Part shown: positions 9,555-51,612 of the stretch, in pieces | Numbering within the stretch: position 1 is the first letter of the stretch | How the letters are laid out: every line of letters begins with the position of its first letter | Assembly: GCA_016719295.1 (NCBI GenBank) | Contig: JADKAF010000002.1 | Location: 98,519-162,518, forward strand | DNA length: 64,000 bases | Reading direction: 5' to 3' | Source of the DNA: Planctomycetota bacterium | GTDB lineage: Bacteria; Planctomycetota; UBA1135; JADKAF01 | Notes under the pieces: generated by a model | The model's database searches: none | Seen by the model: only the letters and a program-made list of their open reading frames with translations | What the model was told of the DNA's origin: nothing | Translations under genes and position numbers: made by a program

Positions 9555-10136
9555 CGCTCCCCCTCGGGGGCTTCCTCTTCTTCCGTGAGAGCTCTGGTTC
9601 GAGGAGAGCGGCTCTCGGCGGAGGACTTCCGGGAACACCCGCGGGCGCTAGACCCGCGAGCCCTGCGACACCGCGCGGGACCGTCCCGCACGCTTCGCAC
9701 CCGGCTCGGTGAAGGCTCGCTCGTAGCGTCGTGCGCGCGAAGCTTGCCTGCTAGCTCCGGTCCGTAGACCGACGAGCCAACGCAGCGGGCTCCGCCCTCC
9801 TCGGTTGCAAACCAACCGATGGAGACCGGAGCCCGTGACCTGACGCGATGATGCGGCGCGAAAGCGCACAGCTCACGAGGACGTGAGCCGCCACTGCGCA
9901 CCGCCGTATCGCGCAAGGCCTGAGGACCCCGGGACGTGCGGCACTCGAGTTGGAACCTCGAAAAGATCGGCGGTCGGGCCTCGCGCTCGACCGGGCCGCT
10001 CGCAGCGGCCGTCGGGATCAGCTCCCGACCTGGCTTCCCGGCCCGGCGCTCAGGCTTTGCTGCGCGCGGGCCATCGTGTTCGTTCCGCGCTGGCCAGCGT
10101 GCGCGGGTCGCCCCGCGCGCTCGGCCAGCTCGAGCA

Positions 10137-10442
<306 letters not shown>

Positions 10443-10769: not shown

Positions 10770-12836
10770 TCAATATCCGAGGTTCGGCATGCGATCCGCC
10801 GGCACGGGAGAGTAGCGATCCGGCTCCATGCCGAACGAGGCGCGGCCCTGGGAGAGCGAGCGCACCGCCGTCGAGTACCCGAACATCTCCCCGATGGGTA
10901 CGGTCCCCTTCAGGATGCGCAGGTCGCCTTCGACCACCATGTCCTGGATCACCGCGCGGCGAGAGTTGAGGTCCCCCTGGATCGAGCCGAGGTAATCGGC
11001 GGGGCTCTGGACCTCGAAGCGCATGATCGGCTCGAGAAGCACCGGGCCAGCCTCCTGCAGCGCTTCGCGGAGCGCCTGGATAGCCGCCTGGCAGTAAGCG
11101 CCTTCGTGGGACTCGCCCTCGCGGACGCTGCCCCCCTCCACCGCGATGCGCACGTTCACCACGGGGTAGCTGCAGATGGGGCCGCTCGAGGCCTCCGCTT
11201 TCAGCGCGTCGACGATCGCCTGCTGGTGCACTCGGGGGATCTGCTCCGCGGGCGCCATCCAGAGGACTTCCACGCGCGCGACCTCCGCCGCGGGCACGAC
11301 GCGCAGGCGCACATGGCCGTGGACGTTGCGGTTGCCCAGCGCGCGCTCGACGACCGACTCACGCGCAGCCGGGCGCGAGACGGTCTCGCGGTACGCGACG
11401 CGCGGCTTGCCCGAGCGCACCTCGACGCGGAAGTCGCGCGAGATGCGATTGCGGAGCACCTCGAGGTGGAGCTCCCCCATCCCCGACATCAGCAGCTCGC
11501 CGGTCTCCTCGTTCTCGCTCGAGCGAAACGTCGGGTCCTCGCGCTCCAGGCGCTTCAGCACGTCGAGGAGCTTGTCGCGATCGCCCGAGGAGACCGGCTC
11601 GACCGTCATCGAGATCACGGGCTCAGGGAAGGTCAGCGACTCCAAGCTCACGGGGCGCGACTTCTCGTAGAGGGTGTCGCCCGTACGCGTGTAGCGCAGG
11701 CCGGGGAGCGCGATGATGGCTCCGGCTCCGGCGGATTCGATCTGCTCACGAGCGTTGGCATGCATGCGCAGGATCTGCCCGACGCGCTCGACCTTCTTCT
11801 CGCGCGAGTTGTAGAGCTGATCCGAGCTGCGGAGGCTTCCTGCGTAGACGCGCACGAACGAGAGATCGCCGTGCTTGTCCGTCGCGATCTTGAACACGAG
11901 CCCGCAGAAGGGCATTTCGGGATCGGGCTCGATGCGCACGGTCTCGCCGTCCTTCTTGCCGCCGATCACCATCGCCTCGACCGGCGGGACCTCGATCGGC
12001 GAAGGCAGGTAATCGACGACGGCGTCGAGCAACGGCTGGATCCCGCGATTGCGCAGCGCGCTGCCGCACAGCACGGGCACGATCGCCCCGGAGATCGTGG
12101 CTTTGCGCAGGCCGGCGACGATCTCGTCATTCGGCAGCTCGGCGCCTTCGAGATAGCGCTCGAGCAGCGACTCATCGGCTTCGGCCGCCGCTTCGAGCAG
12201 GCGCCCGCGCGCGATCTCGATCTCGGTCTCCAGCTGCTCCGGAAGCGGGATCTCGATCGGATGCGCGCCTTGATCATCCTCGTCCCAGCGCCACGCTTTC
12301 AAGCGAACGAGGTCGACGACGCCGGAGAACTCCTTCTCCTGACCGATCGGCCACTGCAGCGGAACGACGCGCGCGCGCAGGCGCTTCTCGATGTCGCTCA
12401 CCACGCGCTCGAAGTCCGCGCCAGGACGATCGAGCTTGTTGACGAACACCAACCGCGGCACGCGGAACTTGTCGGCCTGCCGCCACACCGTCTCCGACTG
12501 CGCCTGCACGCCGGCGACGCCGCAGAAGACGACGACGCATCCGTCCAGCACGCGCATCGAGCGCTCGACCTCCGCGGTGAAGTCGACGTGCCCGGGCGTG
12601 TCGATGAGCTGCAGCTCGCAATCGCGCCACGGAACATAAGTCGCCGCGGCGGTGATGGTGATGCCGCGCTCTTGCTCCTCGGGCATCCAGTCCATGACCG
12701 CAGTGCCCTCGTGCACCTCACCCATCCGATGCTCGCGCCCGGAGTAGAAGAGGATGCGCTCGGAGACGGTGGTCTTGCCCGCGTCGATGTGGGCGACGAT
12801 GCCGAAGTTGCGCAGACGTTCGATCGGTACGGTCAC
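10770..12836 (-). CDS. fusA: Elongation factor G
   Basis: G motifs NFGIVAHIDAGKTT, DTPGHVDF and NKLD, plus the EF-G domain IV/V region. Start set at GTG 12836 (VTVPIERLRNFG), 8 nt after GGGAGAG. The Arg/Ala-rich N-terminal part of ORF 10770..13055 is discarded. Confidence 0.92.
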   Translation of the reverse strand: MTVPIERLRNFGIVAHIDAGKTTVSERILFYSGREHRMGEVHEGTAVMDWMPEEQERGITITAAATYVPWRDCELQLIDTPGHVDFTAEVERSMRVLDGCVVVFCGVAGVQAQSETVWRQADKFRVPRLVFVNKLDRPGADFERVVSDIEKRLRARVVPLQWPIGQEKEFSGVVDLVRLKAWRWDEDDQGAHPIEIPLPEQLETEIEIARGRLLEAAAEADESLLERYLEGAELPNDEIVAGLRKATISGAIVPVLCGSALRNRGIQPLLDAVVDYLPSPIEVPPVEAMVIGGKKDGETVRIEPDPEMPFCGLVFKIATDKHGDLSFVRVYAGSLRSSDQLYNSREKKVERVGQILRMHANAREQIESAGAGAIIALPGLRYTRTGDTLYEKSRPVSLESLTFPEPVISMTVEPVSSGDRDKLLDVLKRLEREDPTFRSSENEETGELLMSGMGELHLEVLRNRISRDFRVEVRSGKPRVAYRETVSRPAARESVVERALGNRNVHGHVRLRVVPAAEVARVEVLWMAPAEQIPRVHQQAIVDALKAEASSGPICSYPVVNVRIAVEGGSVREGESHEGAYCQAAIQALREALQEAGPVLLEPIMRFEVQSPADYLGSIQGDLNSRRAVIQDMVVEGDLRILKGTVPIGEMFGYSTAVRSLSQGRASFGMEPDRYSPVPADRMPNLGY

Positions 12837-12943: not shown

Positions 12944-13477
12944 TCAGGCGCCATCGGCCGCCGGAGCCTGCGCTGGCGCGTGCTCGGCGAGCCGCGCGAT
13001 CCGCTCGGCGTTGAGGCGGAGGAACTCGTCCCTCCAGCGATAGGCGGCGAGCCAAGACTCGTCGCGCGAGCCCGTCGCGAGCAGCGCGAGATACAGCGCT
13101 TCGATGCTGGCGAGCCCCGCGCTCGGATCCTCGAAGGTCTTCGAACGTCGGGGATAAGCGGTCTCGAATCCGGGCGGGATGGAGCGCGCGACGAAGCGCC
13201 CGTCGAGGCGGCGCATCATCGTCTGCACGCGACGCCAGGCGCCATCGAGCACGAGGAGCGGGCGAGCGGCATCCTCGCGCGAGAGCGGCTCCCCATCGCA
13301 GTGCAGCAGCACGGCGCCTTCGACCGCATAGCGTCGATCGACGTCGAAGCTGAGAAAGCTCACGTCAGGACGCCCGCGCAGAGGGATCAACGTGCACTTC
13401 GCCGGCGCCTCCTTCGGATCGCGGAGGATCCAAACGCGCGCCAGGCGATCGAAGTGCAGAGGCTCACGATCGAGCAT
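12944..13477 (-). CDS. Tsr3/DTW-like (TDD superfamily) putative aminocarboxypropyl transferase
   Basis: The C-terminal 177 aa of ORF 12944..13696 carry RDPKEAPAKCT, VLDGAWRRV and LASIEALYLALLATG...YRWRDEFLRLN. These parallel archaeal Tsr3 motifs (DDPKxCT, D-x-SW, LSSLEAL...KWGHxFxELN). The start is uncertain (ATG 13477 or GTG 13486) and the SD is weak. Confidence 0.6.
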   Translation of the reverse strand: MLDREPLHFDRLARVWILRDPKEAPAKCTLIPLRGRPDVSFLSFDVDRRYAVEGAVLLHCDGEPLSREDAARPLLVLDGAWRRVQTMMRRLDGRFVARSIPPGFETAYPRRSKTFEDPSAGLASIEALYLALLATGSRDESWLAAYRWRDEFLRLNAERIARLAEHAPAQAPAADGA

Positions 13478-13501
13478 CCCGTCCACCGTCGTGCAGACCG
13501 T

Positions 13502-13535
13502 CCAGAAATGCGAAAGGCCTCGCGCGAGCGAGGCC
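13502..13535 (-). terminator. Terminator/attenuator-like hairpin between rpsG and the Tsr3-like gene
   Basis: The minus strand reads GGCCTCGC-tcgc-GCGAGGCC followed by TTTCGCATTTCT, an 8-bp GC stem plus a U-rich tail. Confidence 0.4.
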
Positions 13536-13632
13536 CTACCGTCGGTGCAGAACGAGCGGCGAGAGCTCGATCGGGCACCCTCAGATGCCTCCCGCGGTTC
13601 CACTGCGAAGACAGGCCCGCGAGAGCTGCGGA

Positions 13633-14112
13633 TCAGTATGCGAAGTGGCTGTATGCGCGGTTCGCGTCGGCCATCTTGTGCGTGTTCTCCTTCCACGTCA
13701 CCGAAGCGCCCTGATAGTTGTAGGCGTCGAAGAGCTCGTCGGCGAGGCGCAGGTGCATCGGCTTGCCCTTCTTCTTGCGGGCGTTGTCGATGATCACGCG
13801 GATCGCGAGCGACTGCTGGCGCGGCTTCTTCACCTCGTGGGGCACCTGATAATTGGCGCCGCCGACGCGCTTGCTGCGCACTTCGACCGTCGGCTTCACG
13901 TTCTCGACCGCGACTTCGAAGAGCTTCGCGCGCTCTTCTTCGGGCAGGCCGATGCGCTTCGAGGCCGCTTCGACGGCCTTGTAGAAGATCCGCTGGGCCA
14001 CCGTGCGCTTGCCGGTGAGCATGATCTTGTTGATGACCTTCGTGGCCAGGATCGAGCCGTAGATCGGATCCGGCTTCAGGAACTTGGCGGTCGATTCGTA
14101 GTTGCGAGGCAT
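13633..14112 (-). CDS. rpsG: 30S ribosomal protein S7
   Basis: 159-aa ORF MPRNYESTAKFLKPDPIYGS...GGANYQVP...NRAYSHFAY. Confidence 0.94.
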   Translation of the reverse strand: MPRNYESTAKFLKPDPIYGSILATKVINKIMLTGKRTVAQRIFYKAVEAASKRIGLPEEERAKLFEVAVENVKPTVEVRSKRVGGANYQVPHEVKKPRQQSLAIRVIIDNARKKKGKPMHLRLADELFDAYNYQGASVTWKENTHKMADANRAYSHFAY

Positions 14113-14315: not shown

Positions 14316-14687
<372 letters not shown>

Positions 14688-29000: not shown

Positions 29001-30221
29001 TCAGAGCAGGATCTTCGAAACGACCCCTGCGCCGACCGTGCGGCCACCTTCGCGGATCGCGAAGCGCTGCTGCTCGTCCATCGCGATCGGCGTGACGAGC
29101 TCGACCATGAGCTTCACGTTGTCGCCGGGCATGACCATCTCGGCTTGGCCGAGCAGGGTCACCGAGCCGGTGACGTCCGTCGTGCGGAAGTAAAACTGCG
29201 GGCGGTAGCCCTTGAAGAACGGGCTGTGACGGCCGCCTTCTTCCTTCGAGAGGATGTAGACCTCCGCCTCGAACTTCGTGTGCGGCTTCACCGAGCCCGG
29301 CTTGGCGAGAACCATGCCGCGCTTGAGATCGTCCTTCTCCACCCCGCGCAGGAGGACGCCGATGTTGTCACCGGCGATGCCCTTGTCGAGGATCTTCTGG
29401 AACATCTCGACGCCGGTGCACGTGGTCTTCAGCGGGTCCGGACGCAGACCGACGACCTCGAGGTTGTCGTTCACGTTGACCACGCCGCGCTCAACGCGAC
29501 CGGTGCCGACCGTACCGCGCCCCTTGATCGAGAACACGTCTTCGATCGGCATGAGGAAGGGCTTGTCTTCCTCACGGGCGGGCGTCGGGATGTAGGCGTC
29601 GATCGCGTCGAGGAGGTTCAGAACGCTCTTCGTCCACTGGTTGTTCTCGACGTCGGTCTTGCCGCCGCGAACGTAGTTCAGAGCGCCGAGAGCCGAGCCC
29701 TTGACGATCGGGACTTCATCGCCCGGGAAGTTGTACTTCGTGAGCAGCTCGCGGAGCTCGAGCTCGACGAGGTCCTGCAGCTCGGGGTCGTCGACGACGT
29801 CGATCTTGTTCAGGAAGACGACCATCGCCGGCACGCCGACCTGACGAGCGAGAAGAATGTGCTCGCGCGTCTGGGGCATCGGACCGTCGTCCGCCGCGCA
29901 GACGAGGATCGCGCCGTCCATCTGGGCGGCGCCCGTGATCATGTTCTTGATGAAGTCGACGTGGCCCGGGCAGTCGACGTGCGCGTAGTGGCGCTTGTCC
30001 GAGGCGTACTCGACGTGCGCCGCGGCGATCGTGACGATCTTGGAGTCGTCGCGGACCGTGCCGCCCTTCGCGATGTCGGCGTATTCCTTCACCTTGGCAT
30101 TGCCCTTCGCCGCGCAGACGTAGGTCAGGGCGCAAGTCAGGGTGGTCTTGCCGTGAGAGATGTGACCGATGGTGCCGACATTGACGTGCGGCTTGTCGCG
30201 AACGAAGGTTTCCTTAGCCAT
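29001..30221 (-). CDS. tuf: Elongation factor Tu
   Basis: 406-aa [23 protein letters not shown]...DCPGHVDF...NKID. GAGGAG lies upstream. Note the P-loop GHISHGKT. Confidence 0.95.
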
Positions 30222-30374
30222 CTCAACTCCTCGTGACGCCGAGCGGCGCCGTCAAAGCACTCGCCGCCGGAAAGCCATCCTCCCGTGCACCGGTCACGAG
30301 GACCGTCTTCGCGGTGCGGCCCAACAGCAGGCCAGCTCCGAAGGTGCGCAGTGTCGGCTTCGCGGTCTTGAATC

Positions 30375-30450
<76 letters not shown>

Positions 30451-30566
30451 GAAGTCTGGTCGTCGTCGGGTGTGGTCGTCTTGTCGTTGGCGATCCGATG
30501 CGGATCGCCCAGAGGCCCTCAGCTGGGAGCTCGATCGCGGTCGAGCTCCATGCACGAGTGCCGCTT

Positions 30567-30623
30567 CTCCTGGGAGCTTCATGGTCTCCTGGGAGCTTCA
30601 CGGCCTCCTGGGAGCTTCACAGC
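30567..30623. repeat. 19-nt x3 tandem repeat between tRNA-Gly and tRNA-Thr
   Basis: ctcctgggagcttcatggt / ctcctgggagcttcacggc / ctcctgggagcttcacagc. The units start at 30567, 30586 and 30605. Confidence 0.9.
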
Positions 30624-30702
30624 CCCGACGCCCGCGCACAGGAGAGCACGCGGAAGCAGGGCAGCACCAGCCCCAGTCGAGAAGCAGGCACCGCAGTCGC
30701 GA

Positions 30703-30774
<72 letters not shown>

Positions 30775-31051
30775 GGAGCTACGCCCGCAGGAGCAACGTC
30801 CACCGCTGCTCCACCCTCCGGCATCGAGCCCGAAGGATCGAAACCCGCGGGCCAGAACCTGCGGAGGAGCCGAGACCTGCGGAGGTGCCGATCGCAGCCC
30901 GTCGCGAGCGAGCTCGCAGACGAGCGGGCGCTCGGCGCCCGCGACGATCCCACCCCGCCCCACCTCGTCGGCGCTACGGGCCCCCGGCGCGAGCGCCGGC
31001 GATCAAGCCAGGCCCACGGGAGCCGCGCATCGATCGACGAGACGAGCCGTA

Positions 31052-31134
31052 TGGGGAGAGCAGGATTCGAACCTGCGAAGGCGTAAGCCACCAGATTTAC
31101 AGTCTGGCCCATTTGGCCACTCTGGAATCTCCCC
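31052..31134 (-). tRNA. tRNA-Tyr (anticodon GUA), long variable arm
   Basis: Acceptor GGGGAGA/TCTCCCC, anticodon stem CCAGA/TCTGG with loop CTGTAAA, a 14-nt variable arm, T loop GGTTCGAATCC. Confidence 0.9.
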
Positions 31135-31517
31135 GAGAGTTCCCGGCGAATCGCGGAGCCCGGCGAACCTTGAGTTCGGGCCTCGTGGATTCACGGGCTC
31201 GAGGAAGCACTGGCTCGTGGATCAGGTGTGCGATCGGGACTCGCGGAGGGTTGCTCGCGCAACCTCCTCGAACAAAACGTCCCCGACGTCAAAGATCAGC
31301 CGAGCGTCTCCGCTCGGTCCATCGAGCACCTCCCCGGCCCAAAGGCCCGGGAGACTCGCTTCACCGCCGCCTGCGAGACCCGCTCGCTGCTGCCCCGGGC
31401 ACCGCGGCGTCGAAGCGACGCAGCAGCGCGAGGAACGCCAGCTCACATGGCACGCGGAGCCGTTCGCCCTTCACTCGTTGACGGAAGGGCATCGACCCTC
31501 TGCGCGCCAGCGCCAAA

Positions 31518-31592
31518 TGGAGCTAGCGGAGGGAATCGAACCCACAACCACCCGCTTACAAGGCGGGGGCTCTACCGTTGAGCTACGCTAGC
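31518..31592 (-). tRNA. tRNA-Thr (anticodon UGU), CCA encoded
   Basis: Acceptor GCTAGCG/CGCTAGC, anticodon stem CCCGC/GCGGG with loop CTTGTAA, T loop GGGTTCGATTCCC with one U-U mismatch in the T stem. Confidence 0.85.
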
Positions 31593-47565: not shown

Positions 47566-50500
47566 ATGGTCCCCAACATCGGCCGCAAGGTCACTCTCGT
47601 CCTGACCCTCCTCGGGCTGAGCTTGCTCGCGCTGCTCATCCCGCCGCTGGCAGGCGAGTTCCCGATCAAGCTCGGTCTCGACCTGCAAGGCGGCACGCGC
47701 CTCGTGTACCAGGTCGACACGGAGCGCCTGAACGCTCAGCAGGGCACCGACGACTCGATGCAGCGCGATCTCGCGACGCTCATCGACGAGACGATCGGCA
47801 TCATCCGCAACCGCATCGACCCGACCGGCGTGCTCAGCATCACGCTGCAGCGACAGGGCGCGGACCGCATCCTGATCGAGCTGCCGGGCATGTCGCCTGC
47901 CGAGGCGGGCGCCGTGGAGCGCTTGATCACGGAGCTCGGCAAGCTGGAGTTCCGCATCGTCGCCTACAAGGGCGCGGGCTCCGGCGGTGAGCGCAAGGGC
48001 GAGGACGTCGACGTCGACGCCGCGAAGAAGAAGCTGAACGACTGGTGGAGCGCCGAGCTCGCGCGCGGCGGCGACGTCTACGTCGACGAGTACGCGCTGC
48101 GCCGCTACAACGCGCTGCCCGAGAGCGCCGGCGGCCCGCCGACCGGCTTCTTCTGGGCCGGCCTGCAGAACCCGCCCGAGCCGCGCGAGATGGACGGCCG
48201 GGCCCTCTTCCTCGAAGCCTTCTACAAGGCCGCGAAGAAGGAGTGGGCGGAGCGCCTCTCCGACGGCTCGGTCGTGATCCACAACCGTGTGTACGGCGGC
48301 GAGCGTCAGGCGCCTGGGCCGATCTCGGTCGGCGATCAGAGCCCGGTGCCGCTGAAGCTGCGCCGCTCGCCTGGCACCACGCCGATGGTGCACGGCGAAT
48401 GGCTCGACGTGGCGCTGCTGCGCGACGAGCGCGTGCTGACCACGGGCAAGAACTGGGTCTTCACCGGCGAGGATCTCTATCAGACCTTCCCGGACCAGGA
48501 CCAGAACGGCTATCCCTGCGTGCGCTTCATCTGCCAGGCGTCCCGCAGCGATGCCTTCGCGGATTTCACCGAGGCGTACACCAATCGCCCGATGGCGATC
48601 CTGCTGAACGACTATATCTCCGGCAACCCGCCGGTGATCCAGGGCCGTCTGCCCGGCGCCGGCATCATCACCGGCAACTTCAGCTCGGCCGAGGTGAAGC
48701 ACCTGCAGAACGTGCTCCGCTCGGGCAGCTTGAAGATCCCGCTCGAGCTGATGTCGCGCGATCTCATGGGCCCGACCCTCGGTGAGGAAGCGATCCGCCT
48801 GGGCTCGATCTCGGCGCTGATCGGCCTCGCGCTCGTCATCTGGTTCATGACCTACTACTACAGGCGGGTCGGCATCGTGGCGGCGTGGTCGCTCGGCGCG
48901 AACATGCTGCTCCTGCTCGGCGCGATGGCCCTCTTCCGGGTGAACCTGAACCTCCCCGGCATCGCGGGCCTGATCCTGACCGTCGGCATGGCGCTTGACG
49001 CCAACATCCTGATCTACGAGCGCATCCGCGAAGAGCGCGCGAAGCAGCGCACGCTGCTGCAGTCGGCCAAGAACGGCTTCGATCGCGCGTTCCTCACGAT
49101 CTTCGACTCGAACCTTACCACGCTGATCACCTCGGTGGTCCTGATGTGGCTCGGCACCGGCCCCGTGCGCGGCTTCGCGGTCGTGCTCGCGATCGGCATC
49201 CTAACCACGATGTTCGCGGCCCTGGTGGTCACCAAGGTCCTGATCCACTTCCTGCTGCAGAAGCCGAACTTCCGCGAGTTCGAGATGCGCTCGTGGGTGC
49301 CGAAGACCCACTACAACTTCACGAAGTACATGGGCCAGTGCGTCGCGGGCTCGCTGATCGCGATCCTGCTCGGCCTGGTCGTCGTCACGGTGAAGGGCCG
49401 GGAGCTCCTCGGCATCGACTTCACCGGTGGTGGCACCTTCCGCGTCGCGCTGAAGGAGGACATGGAGATCAGCACCGTCCGCGAGAAGATGGAGCAGATC
49501 TTCGAGTCGGTGCAGGTCTCGACCCTCGGTGACAGCAAGCGCGTCTACAGCATCAAGGTGAAGCTCGACCCCGAGGACAACCGCGGGCTCCAGCAGGACA
49601 TCGCCTCGCGGCCGGGCATCTCGCGCCGCGCCGAAGGCGCCGTCGATCGCTCCGCGGCGAAGGGAGCCGGGCTCCGCGACGACCGTCGCTTCGAGCCGAT
49701 CGATCTCGTGCTCCGCTTCGCCCACCCCGTGGTCGAGTCCGACCTCGAGGACATTCGCGAGCGCCTCTTCCGCCAGGGCTTCGTCTCCTTCCCCACCCAG
49801 CCGTGGATGGAAGTCGAGGCCGATGACGCGCGTGCCGTTCGCCGCGCGAACGAAGAAGCCGGTCGCTTCGTGAAGGCGAACTTCCACTCGGCCGACTCCG
49901 GCGACCAGGAGAAGGGCACTCCCAAGCTCGTGGGCGCCGAGGGTACGAGCGGCATCGTCGCGAAGCCGCAGGTGCAGCTCGAACCCACCGATCCCACGGA
50001 GCGCACGGTGGTGCTGCGCAACACGCGCCTCCTCTTCGAGCGCCTGCGCGAGCACGGCGACATGAATCTCGTGCGCCGCGCGCTCCTGCCGCGCTATGAG
50101 CTCGGCATCCAGGGCCTCGAGGCCCAGATCCGCGCGCTGCTGGGCGACCAGCTCGCGCCGGACTTCCTGATCAGCGATCGCGGGATCTCCGATCTCGCGC
50201 TCGAGCAGGTGCGGGTCTCGTTCGAGCTCGGCTTCCCGAAGGCCGTCGACGTCGAGCTGGTGCGCCAGCTCCTGCGCCAGGCGGGCCTCGTTCCCGAGCA
50301 CCTGAAGAGCGAGGGCAAGGAAGTCGAGCCGGGGAGCAGCGCGAGCCGCTTCACCGTCGAGAACGCCTACTCTCGCTACATCGCCGAGGCAGGCACGCTC
50401 TCCACGGAGCTCGCGGCCGAGGCCGCGCGCATCGAGCGCAATCCCGCCGTCGGCGGCGTCTTCGGGCAGGTTTCGGCTACGAACGCGAGCTTCCGCGGCA

Positions 50501-51612
50501 CCGACCGCCGCTGCTCCTTCAATCTGGCCCTGCGCGGCAAGGCTCCGTCGAAGGAAGAGCTGCTCCCGGCGCTGCGAGCGATCGGCCTGCGCTTCGATCC
50601 CGCGAAGCTCACCCAGGTCGAAGGGGATGCCAGCGGCTTGCGCTGGCGCCTCAACGACGCTCGCTCGCTCTGGCTCGACGATCCCGCGCAGCTCCGTGAG
50701 GCGCTGGCAGCGGAGGTCGCGCGCGGCGAAGGAGCGCAGCTCGTCCTCGCCGAGGAAGTGACCCTGAACCTCGTCGGCAAGCCCTCGAGCGGCGATCCGG
50801 TGAAAGCGGTCGAGGAGATGCTGCGCGGCGCGGGCCTCGCCTTCAGCGAGGCGGCGCGCGTGGAGGCGCTGAGCGATGTCTCGTATCGCTTCCGCCCCGA
50901 TGGTCCGTCGACCATGCCGCTCGGACGCATGCAGGACGCGATCACCGGCCAGCTGAACCGGATGGAGGAGAAGGGCCAGGAGCGCCTCGCGGTCGCCTCG
51001 CCGTTCGGCGATGCGTCGCAGATCTCGGCTCAAGCGTCGACCGACCTGCGCGATGCCGCGGTGCTGGCGTTGATCGTGTCGCTGTTCGCGATCACGCTCT
51101 ACATCCGCGCGCGCTTCCACGAGTACCGCTACGCCTTCGGGGCCGTGCTCGCGCTCTTCCACGACGTGCTGATCACGATCGGAGCCGTGGCTCTCGCGGC
51201 CTCTCTCGGCATCATCGACGCGGAGATCGACCTCAACCTGATCGCGGCGCTGCTCACGATCATCGGCTACTCGCTGAACGACACGATCGTGATCTACGAC
51301 CGAATCCGTGAGAACCTGCCGCGCGTGAAGGGCAGCTTCGAGGAGATCGTGAACACCAGCATCAACGAGACCCTCGCCCGCACCTTGCTCACCGGCTTGA
51401 CGACGATCTTCATGATCACCGTCCTGCTGCTGGTGAACTATGGCCGCGGCAACGCGATCGAGGGCTTCGCGTTCGCGATCCTGGTCGGCGTGCTGGCCGG
51501 AACCTACTCCACGATGTACATCGCCTCGCCCTTCCTCATCTGGGTCGAGAAGCGCCGCCTCGCCGCCGATGCGCGTCGCGATGCGCTGAAGGGACGCGCC
51601 GCGGCTCATTGA
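47566..51612 (+). CDS. secDF: Fused protein-export membrane protein SecDF with a greatly expanded SecF periplasmic domain
   Basis: 1348-aa ORF. The SecD part has LGLDLQGGTRLVY and the TM block ...GMALDANILIYERIREE. The SecF part has GIDFTGGGTF and ...IGYSLNDTIVIYDRIREN. About 475 additional residues lie between the two SecF landmarks. Confidence 0.9.
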   Translation: MVPNIGRKVTLVLTLLGLSLLALLIPPLAGEFPIKLGLDLQGGTRLVYQVDTERLNAQQGTDDSMQRDLATLIDETIGIIRNRIDPTGVLSITLQRQGADRILIELPGMSPAEAGAVERLITELGKLEFRIVAYKGAGSGGERKGEDVDVDAAKKKLNDWWSAELARGGDVYVDEYALRRYNALPESAGGPPTGFFWAGLQNPPEPREMDGRALFLEAFYKAAKKEWAERLSDGSVVIHNRVYGGERQAPGPISVGDQSPVPLKLRRSPGTTPMVHGEWLDVALLRDERVLTTGKNWVFTGEDLYQTFPDQDQNGYPCVRFICQASRSDAFADFTEAYTNRPMAILLNDYISGNPPVIQGRLPGAGIITGNFSSAEVKHLQNVLRSGSLKIPLELMSRDLMGPTLGEEAIRLGSISALIGLALVIWFMTYYYRRVGIVAAWSLGANMLLLLGAMALFRVNLNLPGIAGLILTVGMALDANILIYERIREERAKQRTLLQSAKNGFDRAFLTIFDSNLTTLITSVVLMWLGTGPVRGFAVVLAIGILTTMFAALVVTKVLIHFLLQKPNFREFEMRSWVPKTHYNFTKYMGQCVAGSLIAILLGLVVVTVKGRELLGIDFTGGGTFRVALKEDMEISTVREKMEQIFESVQVSTLGDSKRVYSIKVKLDPEDNRGLQQDIASRPGISRRAEGAVDRSAAKGAGLRDDRRFEPIDLVLRFAHPVVESDLEDIRERLFRQGFVSFPTQPWMEVEADDARAVRRANEEAGRFVKANFHSADSGDQEKGTPKLVGAEGTSGIVAKPQVQLEPTDPTERTVVLRNTRLLFERLREHGDMNLVRRALLPRYELGIQGLEAQIRALLGDQLAPDFLISDRGISDLALEQVRVSFELGFPKAVDVELVRQLLRQAGLVPEHLKSEGKEVEPGSSASRFTVENAYSRYIAEAGTLSTELAAEAARIERNPAVGGVFGQVSATNASFRGTDRRCSFNLALRGKAPSKEELLPALRAIGLRFDPAKLTQVEGDASGLRWRLNDARSLWLDDPAQLREALAAEVARGEGAQLVLAEEVTLNLVGKPSSGDPVKAVEEMLRGAGLAFSEAARVEALSDVSYRFRPDGPSTMPLGRMQDAITGQLNRMEEKGQERLAVASPFGDASQISAQASTDLRDAAVLALIVSLFAITLYIRARFHEYRYAFGAVLALFHDVLITIGAVALAASLGIIDAEIDLNLIAALLTIIGYSLNDTIVIYDRIRENLPRVKGSFEEIVNTSINETLARTLLTGLTTIFMITVLLLVNYGRGNAIEGFAFAILVGVLAGTYSTMYIASPFLIWVEKRRLAADARRDALKGRAAAH

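Follow-up and report, generated by a model that had tools for sequence, protein, structure and literature searches.

We identified a gene for a Tsr3-type protein inside the str operon of a planctomycete, between the genes for ribosomal protein S7 (rpsG) and elongation factor G (EF-G; fusA). The gene lies in a 64,000-nt stretch of contig JADKAF010000002.1 (Planctomycetota bacterium, assembly GCA_016719295.1), hereafter referred to as the window. As judged from sequence, the product belongs to pc1599, which of the bacterial families is the closest to the Tsr3 of archaea and eukaryotes, and the location of the gene within the operon is conserved across many Planctomycetota species. We tentatively propose that the protein is an S-adenosylmethionine (SAM)-dependent enzyme that transfers a 3-amino-3-carboxypropyl (acp) group to RNA, most likely tRNA.

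The Tsr3-like gene

The Tsr3-like coding sequence encodes 177 amino acids and spans positions 12944..13477 of the window, stop codon included. Like all features of the str operon described below, it is located on the minus strand, with an ATG at 13477 and the stop codon at 12944-12946. The maximal open reading frame (ORF) extends to 13696, and the extension overlaps rpsG. A Shine-Dalgarno-like sequence, GGTGGA (13482..13487), lies 4 nt 5' of the ATG and reads GGAGGA in relatives, as seen in a spacer alignment with loci L211 and L003. Orthologs exhibiting 93% and 82% identity have gene calls equal in length, and dN/dS values are 0.06 and 0.16, respectively. These ratios, together with the large number of homologs, indicate that the ORF is a real gene, subject to strong purifying selection, rather than a chance product of DNA with 68% G+C.

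The original prediction, made from the DNA alone, had placed a gene of about 177 codons between rpsG and fusA. The length proved exact, both neighbours lie on the same strand, and all of the motifs quoted at the time are present in the protein (residues 19-29, 76-84, 122-136 and 146-156).

A word-indexed search retrieved 1021 homologs, most of which carry the PF04034 domain; their source names are "DUF367 domain-containing protein" or "pre-rRNA-processing protein TSR3". When 1.84 billion representative proteins were scanned in full, 585 clusters at 50% identity were obtained.

Similarity to Tsr3 and family assignment

Taken alone, the protein is recognized by several models of the superfamily at scores below their curated cut-offs. 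This is the case for PF04034 (E 3.2e-5, 24.1 bits, cut-off 29.9), NCBIfam DUF367 (E 3.5e-9), NCBIfam PRK02287 (36.7 bits, cut-off 152), the Vulcanisaeta Tsr3 model TSR3Vulc0418 of NCBIfam (E 3.9e-7, 30.1 bits, cut-off 300) and the DTW family PF03942 (E 0.0074, 16.5 bits, cut-off 33.7). A phmmer search aligned the full length of the protein to the solved Tsr3 of V. distributa (5apg; E 2.5e-5). A profile built from 47 relatives matched 5apg at E 1.1e-13 and Sulfolobus Tsr3 (5ap8) at 2e-5, and had no match to TapT at E<1. PF04034 was in turn matched by 46 of the 47 aligned relatives at E<=0.01, the best value being 4.8e-13.

The AlphaFold2 model of the protein has a mean local confidence (pLDDT) of 90.8 and a predicted template modelling score (pTM) of 0.86. 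In Foldseek searches, 5apg was the top and only significant PDB match of the model (E 3.2e-9, TM 0.66), followed by TrmD, TapT and Trm10 at E > 0.03; the TapT entries 9kyt and 9kz5 scored between 0.05 and 0.09. Family profile, PF04034 matches and predicted structure therefore agree on Tsr3, and bear out the Tsr3/DTW-like identity initially suggested. The protein is best described as a genuine Tsr3-type protein with a predicted SPOUT-type fold. Because the curated cut-offs are missed, it is not filed as a Tsr3 ortholog; nor, on sequence and structural grounds, is it a TapT-type DTW protein.

The TDD superfamily has been split into Tsr3, DTWD1, DTWD2, AT1G03687 and the bacterial pc1599 family, which is found mainly in Planctomycetes, Verrucomicrobia and Chlamydiae (Burroughs & Aravind 2014, PMC4275035). 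Members listed for pc1599, among them those of Planctomyces brasiliensis, P. maris, Schlesneria, Coraliomargarita, Protochlamydia, Parachlamydia, Waddlia and Simkania, are 148-235 aa in length (PMC4275035). In phylum and in size, the relatives retrieved here agree with these published members. Moreover, in an hhalign comparison the Planctomycetota set matched 28 Chlamydiota members with a probability of 100% (E 1.5e-48, 150 aligned columns). The Tsr3-like gene is accordingly assigned to the pc1599 family through the Chlamydiota profile match, taxa and size, rather than by comparison with the pc1599 protein itself. We found no experimental characterisation of this family in the literature.

Conserved motifs and putative active site

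The N-terminal motif RDPKEAPAKCT corresponds to residues 19-29 (13391..13423). In the phmmer alignment to 5apg, R19, K27 and T29 pair with R9, K17 and T19 of V. distributa Tsr3, of which T19 holds the acp carboxylate of SAM (Meyer 2016, PMC4872110). Across the 47 aligned sequences, E23 and C28 are invariant, and R19, D20 and K27 are conserved in at least 90%.

The central segment VLDGAWRRV (residues 76-84) includes D78-G-A-W81 (13235..13246), the counterpart of the D/E-x-T/S-W motif defined for the TDD superfamily (PMC12630136; PMC7026641), and aligns to D70-C-S-W73 of 5apg. In Tsr3, D70 is the proposed base (Meyer 2016, PMC4872110; Wang 2025, PMC12630136), and W73 buries the SAM methyl group, so that acp rather than methyl is transferred (PMC4872110; PMC12630136). 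D78 and W81 are invariant in the 47 sequences; the catalytic Asp and Trp, on which the original prediction had staked the identification, are thus retained in a proper alignment. D78 is the putative catalytic base, and W81 is the putative Trp that buries the methyl group. The third position of the motif may be S, T or A across the family, and is Ala in the protein described here.

A family signature, TAYPRRSKTFEDPSAGLASIEAL (residues 106-128; 13094..13162), was recognized in the alignment to Tsr3 and also occurs in the Chlamydiota branch. Within the motif LASIEALYLALLATG (residues 122-136), L122, S124 and A127 pair with L110, T112 and A115 of Tsr3, all of which contact SAM (PMC4872110; PMC12630136). 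The C-terminal helix motif YRWRDEFLRLN (residues 146-156; 13010..13042) aligns with Y/KWG..F..LN of Tsr3. Basic residues involved in RNA binding by Tsr3 are also retained, as R9, K17, K74, R75 and R91 correspond to R19, K27, R82, R83 and R98, respectively. YfiP/TapT lacks these Tsr3-type basic residues.

Conservation of gene order

In the window, the Tsr3-like gene is preceded by rpsL (ribosomal protein S12; 14316..14687) and rpsG (13633..14112), its upstream neighbour. It is followed, 107 nt past its stop codon, by fusA (688 aa; 10770..12836), which was identified by its Pfam domains and has a call of the same length in L211, and then by rpsJ (ribosomal protein S10; 10137..10442).

A synteny scan, carried out on one genome per GTDB species, revealed that at least 590 species carry the gene; the following counts refer to the best 80. 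These carriers are almost all Planctomycetota metagenome-assembled genomes (MAGs), in addition to the isolate Saltatorellus ferox Poly30 and a few Opitutales and Puniceicoccales. In 64 of the 80 species representatives, rpsG precedes the gene in the same orientation, at a distance of 400 nt or less in 54, and fusA is found within 400 nt downstream in 49/57. In Planctomycetota loci, the full order rpsL-rpsG-X-fusA-rpsJ-rplC, where X denotes the Tsr3-like gene, is the rule. The synteny survey that had been suggested as a check therefore supports a conserved order, and the gene, which had been regarded as a local insertion into the str operon, is no such thing, since rpsG-X-fusA recurs across many Planctomycetota species. 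In a large planctomycete lineage, the str-operon slot has long been established.

Where the str locus is interrupted, the inserted genes are unrelated, and encode, for instance, a TPR protein, a GH20 hydrolase or an FAD (flavin adenine dinucleotide) oxidoreductase. The idea of a second partner gene in these loci was rejected for this reason. In a Planctomycetota MAG (L076, 2733-6537), the Tsr3-like gene occupies the same rpsG/fusA slot on the strand opposite to the operon. Verrucomicrobiota loci have neither ribosomal-protein neighbours nor a conserved context, and feature genes for PIN, thiazole kinase, heparinase and MurJ proteins.

A recurrent hairpin downstream of rpsG

A G+C-rich hairpin is located between rpsG and the Tsr3-like gene (13504..13537). 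Its predicted fold consists of a stem, GGCCUCGC/GCGAGGCC, and a UCGC loop, followed by the tail UUUCGCAUUUCU, which reaches 13504. The stem of 8-10 bp spans 13535-13516 and can be extended to 13537-13514. In the 93% and 82% relatives (L211 and L003), the stem is kept, the loop is different and the flanking spacer has diverged.

Hairpins of -20 kcal/mol or stronger are present in 59% of rpsG-to-X spacers (51 species; median -22.5 kcal/mol), and in 6% of rpsL-to-rpsG, 13% of X-to-fusA and 29% of fusA-to-rpsJ spacers. The sequences of the rpsG-to-X hairpins differ between lineages, indicating that the structure recurs and not the sequence. No terminator was called in the window by a simple consensus scan, which missed the hairpin because the U tract is weak. 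Of the hairpin and U-rich tract originally described upstream of the gene, the former is present (13537-13514), and the latter is weak. The element may reasonably be viewed as a candidate terminator, attenuator or 3'-end-stabilising stem, and its recurrence in relatives fits the attenuator idea. Such a strong hairpin probably lowers the transcription of the gene, or separates it from that of the S12 and S7 genes.

Chlamydial gene fusions and the proposed activity

In Chlamydiota, the Tsr3-like domain is found fused to the protein component of RNase P (RnpA). In two sequences, P0163 and P0195, the RNase P protein domain PF00825 and the Tsr3-like domain are encoded in one ORF, as checked against Pfam. 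P0274, which is 56% identical to P0163, combines the same two families according to its precomputed annotation. The fusion is therefore present in at least two, probably three, Chlamydiota sequences. In two Chlamydiota-like metagenome contigs, L204 (4867-5792) and L203 (5014-5927), the fused gene is found directly after rpmH, that is, in the canonical rnpA locus. Roughly 55 residues at the called start of P0195 coincide with rpmH in a different frame and are probably untranslated.

Standalone chlamydial genes are located a few kb downstream of rnpA (L205, L207-L210). In three loci, a gene for a PolyA_pol-family nucleotidyltransferase (CCA-adding enzyme or poly(A) polymerase) lies downstream of the Tsr3-like gene, separated from it by about 40 nt in L206 and L207, which are closely related, and by about 1.5 kb in L210. 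Neither RnpA nor nucleotidyltransferase neighbours were found in the Planctomycetota and Verrucomicrobiota loci. Fusions to glycosyltransferase-9 (P0126) and TonB_C (P0218) domains were observed once each and were taken as gene-call or assembly artefacts.

By analogy with Tsr3, the enzyme would bind SAM such that Trp81 buries the methyl group and the acp arm is exposed. Asp78 would then act as the base, and a uridine within a translation-apparatus RNA would receive the acp group at N3, yielding 3-(3-amino-3-carboxypropyl)uridine (acp3U). The substrate would be tRNA or pre-tRNA, rather than the site in 16S helix 31 that is modified by Tsr3. tRNA is favoured because of the RnpA fusions, the nucleotidyltransferase neighbours and the tRNA substrates of all bacterial TDD enzymes characterised to date (PMC6895100; PMC7026641). 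The fixed rpsG/fusA slot would couple expression of the gene to the translation machinery, in the same way as trmD in the rpsP operon of E. coli.

The RnpA fusions suggest, more specifically, that acp3U may be made on RNase P-bound pre-tRNA. It is possible, if doubtful, that a Tsr3-type enzyme in bacteria of the Planctomycetota-Verrucomicrobiota-Chlamydiota (PVC) group installs an acp modification new to bacteria, either at an rRNA site other than 966 or at a new position of RNase P-bound pre-tRNA.

Several observations weigh against a tRNA acp transferase. RnpA fusions are rare, as they were found in three sequences among >2000 relatives, and chlamydial gene order is generally conserved, so that proximity to rnpA or to the nucleotidyltransferase gene is a weak argument by itself. 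The protein is nearer to Tsr3 than to TapT, and retains all five of the basic residues listed above. The S12/S7/EF-G context fits an rRNA enzyme equally well, and so does the locus of the Opitutales MAG described in the next section. As for the chemistry, the third motif position is Ala and not Thr/Ser, the scores are below the Pfam and NCBIfam cut-offs, and acp transfer by the pc1599 family is deduced from sequence and model.

The Tsr3 site and alternative substrates

Tsr3 acts at U966 of 16S helix 31, the tip of which normally carries m2G966 (N2-methylguanosine) in bacteria. In an Opitutales MAG (L060, 5001-10420), the Tsr3-like gene is located 870 nt upstream of a complete rRNA operon, the 16S gene of which reads UUCGAUGCAACGCG. 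This corresponds to U965-G966-C967, as in E. coli. U966 was consequently rejected for this carrier, and the Tsr3 site is excluded in at least one verified carrier of the gene. The rRNA operon of L060 consists of 16S, tRNA-Ala, tRNA-Ile and 23S genes, and its spacer tRNAs follow the order Ala-Ile instead of the usual Ile-Ala.

Position 966 is rarely variable in bacteria. We recovered about 25 planctomycete-type 16S sequences in a metagenome scan with the target of the PLA886 probe, and nearly all have G966. Most read GAGGCUACG or GAGGCAACG, both of which feature G966, and GAGGCAACG has no U anywhere in the helix-31 loop. Position 966 is U in L175 and L201 and A in L196; sequencing errors or chimeras are possible, as all three records are 1.5 kb long and comprise 16S alone, and L175 and L201 cannot be assigned to a carrier. 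The 19-nt target of PLA886, a "Planctomycetes-specific" probe for fluorescence in situ hybridization, matched eukaryotic 18S exactly in most of the 120 contigs retrieved (L083-L202). Among public sequencing runs, none contained the window's organism or S. ferox in a useful proportion. Metatranscriptome contigs on planctomycete 16S, which were unitigs of only about 60 nt and came from a mixture of taxa, carried no site-specific signal, and sequencing runs searched for the L060 16S shared only conserved words with it.

Action at U966, as in Tsr3, would be the simplest expectation from homology, and the two planctomycete-type sequences with U966 (L175 and L201) are compatible with it. Since neither can be linked to a carrier, the L060 carrier has G966, and most planctomycete-type sequences have G966, some without any U in the loop, we regard this activity as very improbable. 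A different rRNA target, namely a 16S or 23S uridine other than 966 modified during 30S assembly by an enzyme co-expressed with S12, S7 and EF-G, is more probable than this. The nearest relatives in sequence and fold are the rRNA enzymes Tsr3, whose RNA-binding basic residues are conserved; across Planctomycetota, the gene keeps its place in the str operon; the gene is near an rRNA operon in L060; and archaeal Tsr3 genes are also found near the ribosomal super-operon (PMC4275035). However, bacterial rRNA is not known to carry acp modifications (PMC7026641), tRNA is the target suggested by the RnpA fusions and the PolyA_pol-family neighbour, and the L060 arrangement was not seen in five other Verrucomicrobiota loci. 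Moreover, genes for tRNA enzymes also reside in ribosomal-protein operons, as exemplified by E. coli trmD. On these grounds we consider an rRNA target rather unlikely; one candidate site would be another P-site or decoding-centre uridine, such as the position of m3U1498 (3-methyluridine) in E. coli.

The assumption of acp transfer itself may be questioned, as the activity of the pc1599 family is a prediction from sequence and model, the motif is DGAW and not D-x-T/S-W, scores fall under the curated family cut-offs, and an RNase activity was proposed for the TDD domain in 2014 (PMC4275035). The protein could accordingly act as a SPOUT methyltransferase or a nuclease, or else bind RNA or assist assembly without any catalysis. 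This is improbable, because the Trp that forces acp over methyl transfer is invariant, as are the Asp and the SAM-contact positions, and strong purifying selection acts on exactly these motifs; the nuclease idea, in turn, has been superseded for Tsr3 and YfiP by direct experiments (PMC4872110; PMC7026641). Finally, the location directly upstream of fusA is the sole support for the view that the enzyme might modify the protein product of a neighbouring gene (EF-G, S7 or S12), as happens to EF-2 in the acp step of diphthamide synthesis. The TDD enzymes characterised so far all modify RNA, the acp group of diphthamide is transferred by an unrelated radical-SAM enzyme (PMC4872110), and genes of the family are found away from fusA, too, in Verrucomicrobiota and Chlamydiota, which makes a protein substrate scarcely credible. 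We therefore retain tRNA, or pre-tRNA, as the preferred substrate of the Tsr3-like enzyme.

Other features of the window

The translation genes on the minus strand of the window include four tRNA genes, tuf, nusG, rplA, rplJ, rpoB, rpoC, rpsL, rpsG, the Tsr3-like gene, fusA, rpsJ and rplC. No tuf gene is present between fusA and rpsJ. tuf maps instead to 29001-30221, within a region (29001-31592) in which it adjoins genes for tRNA-Thr(UGU), tRNA-Tyr, tRNA-Gly and tRNA-Thr(GGU), upstream of nusG-rplKAJL-rpoBC. The arrangement is similar to that of E. coli tufB.

rpsJ and rplC usually abut in S10 operons. In the window, the two genes are separated by about 580 nt (9555-10136), the likely rplC start (MTSYILG...) being at about 9554. 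The corresponding spacer in relatives has a median length of 225 nt, and in 70% of loci a hairpin of -20 kcal/mol or stronger is present within it. No Rfam match was found in the rpsJ-rplC spacer of the window. An ORF of 1348 aa at 47566-51612 contains both SecD and SecF domains and encodes a fused SecDF protein.

Implications

Tsr3 is generally presented as an enzyme of archaea and eukaryotes, and orthologs were not found in bacteria in one survey (PMC6895100). The pc1599 family was already catalogued in 2014. Neither the str-operon position of pc1599 genes nor RnpA fusions were found in the text of PMC4275035 or in the part of its supplement that was accessible, the table of contents of which lists gene neighbourhoods for archaeal Tsr3 and DTWD2 only.

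PVC bacteria probably carry a modification of translation-apparatus RNA that has never been looked for, because the gene of a Tsr3-like family occupies a fixed place between rpsG and fusA in many Planctomycetota, and the domain is fused to RnpA in some Chlamydiota. On the more speculative reading given above, this would be either the first acp-modified nucleotide in bacterial rRNA, at a site other than 966, or acp3U at a new tRNA position. Cultured carriers exist, and include Saltatorellus ferox, Gimesia maris, Rubinisphaera brasiliensis and Coraliomargarita akajimensis, so that what bacterial Tsr3-like enzymes modify is directly testable. The answer would show how the choice between rRNA and tRNA substrates evolved in the acp-transferase superfamily.

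Comparison with known systems

The Tsr3-like protein conforms to the pc1599 family in size (about 150-180 aa, single domain), taxa and motif set, with no structural difference. It shares with Tsr3 (5apg, 5ap8, PF04034) the SPOUT-type fold, the D-x-x-W motif, the SAM-contact residues and several basic surface residues, and both proteins feature a C-terminal helical domain with the motifs LxSxEA and (Y/K)W..F..LN. In contrast, identity to Tsr3 is only about 27%, the curated Tsr3 thresholds are not reached, and the ANP..YG loop of Tsr3 is replaced by an invariant TAYPRxS in the pc1599-type protein.

TapT/TuaA (E. coli YfiP) and DTWD1/DTWD2 belong to the same superfamily, follow the same D-x-T/S-W logic and have the same predicted chemistry (acp3U). 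The substrate class of TapT, tRNA, is also the one favoured for the Tsr3-like protein, and members of the Chlamydiota branch of the family match the DTW model. Unlike TapT, the Tsr3-like protein has neither a zinc-ribbon nor an N-terminal extension, and the basic patches differ.

As regards genomic context, the closest parallel is E. coli trmD, a gene for a tRNA-modifying enzyme that is likewise of SPOUT fold and is located inside a ribosomal-protein operon (rpsP-rimM-trmD-rplS). trmD differs from the Tsr3-like gene in family, in chemistry (m1G37, i.e., 1-methylguanosine, methylation) and in operon. Its example nonetheless indicates that location in a ribosomal-protein operon need not imply an rRNA substrate.

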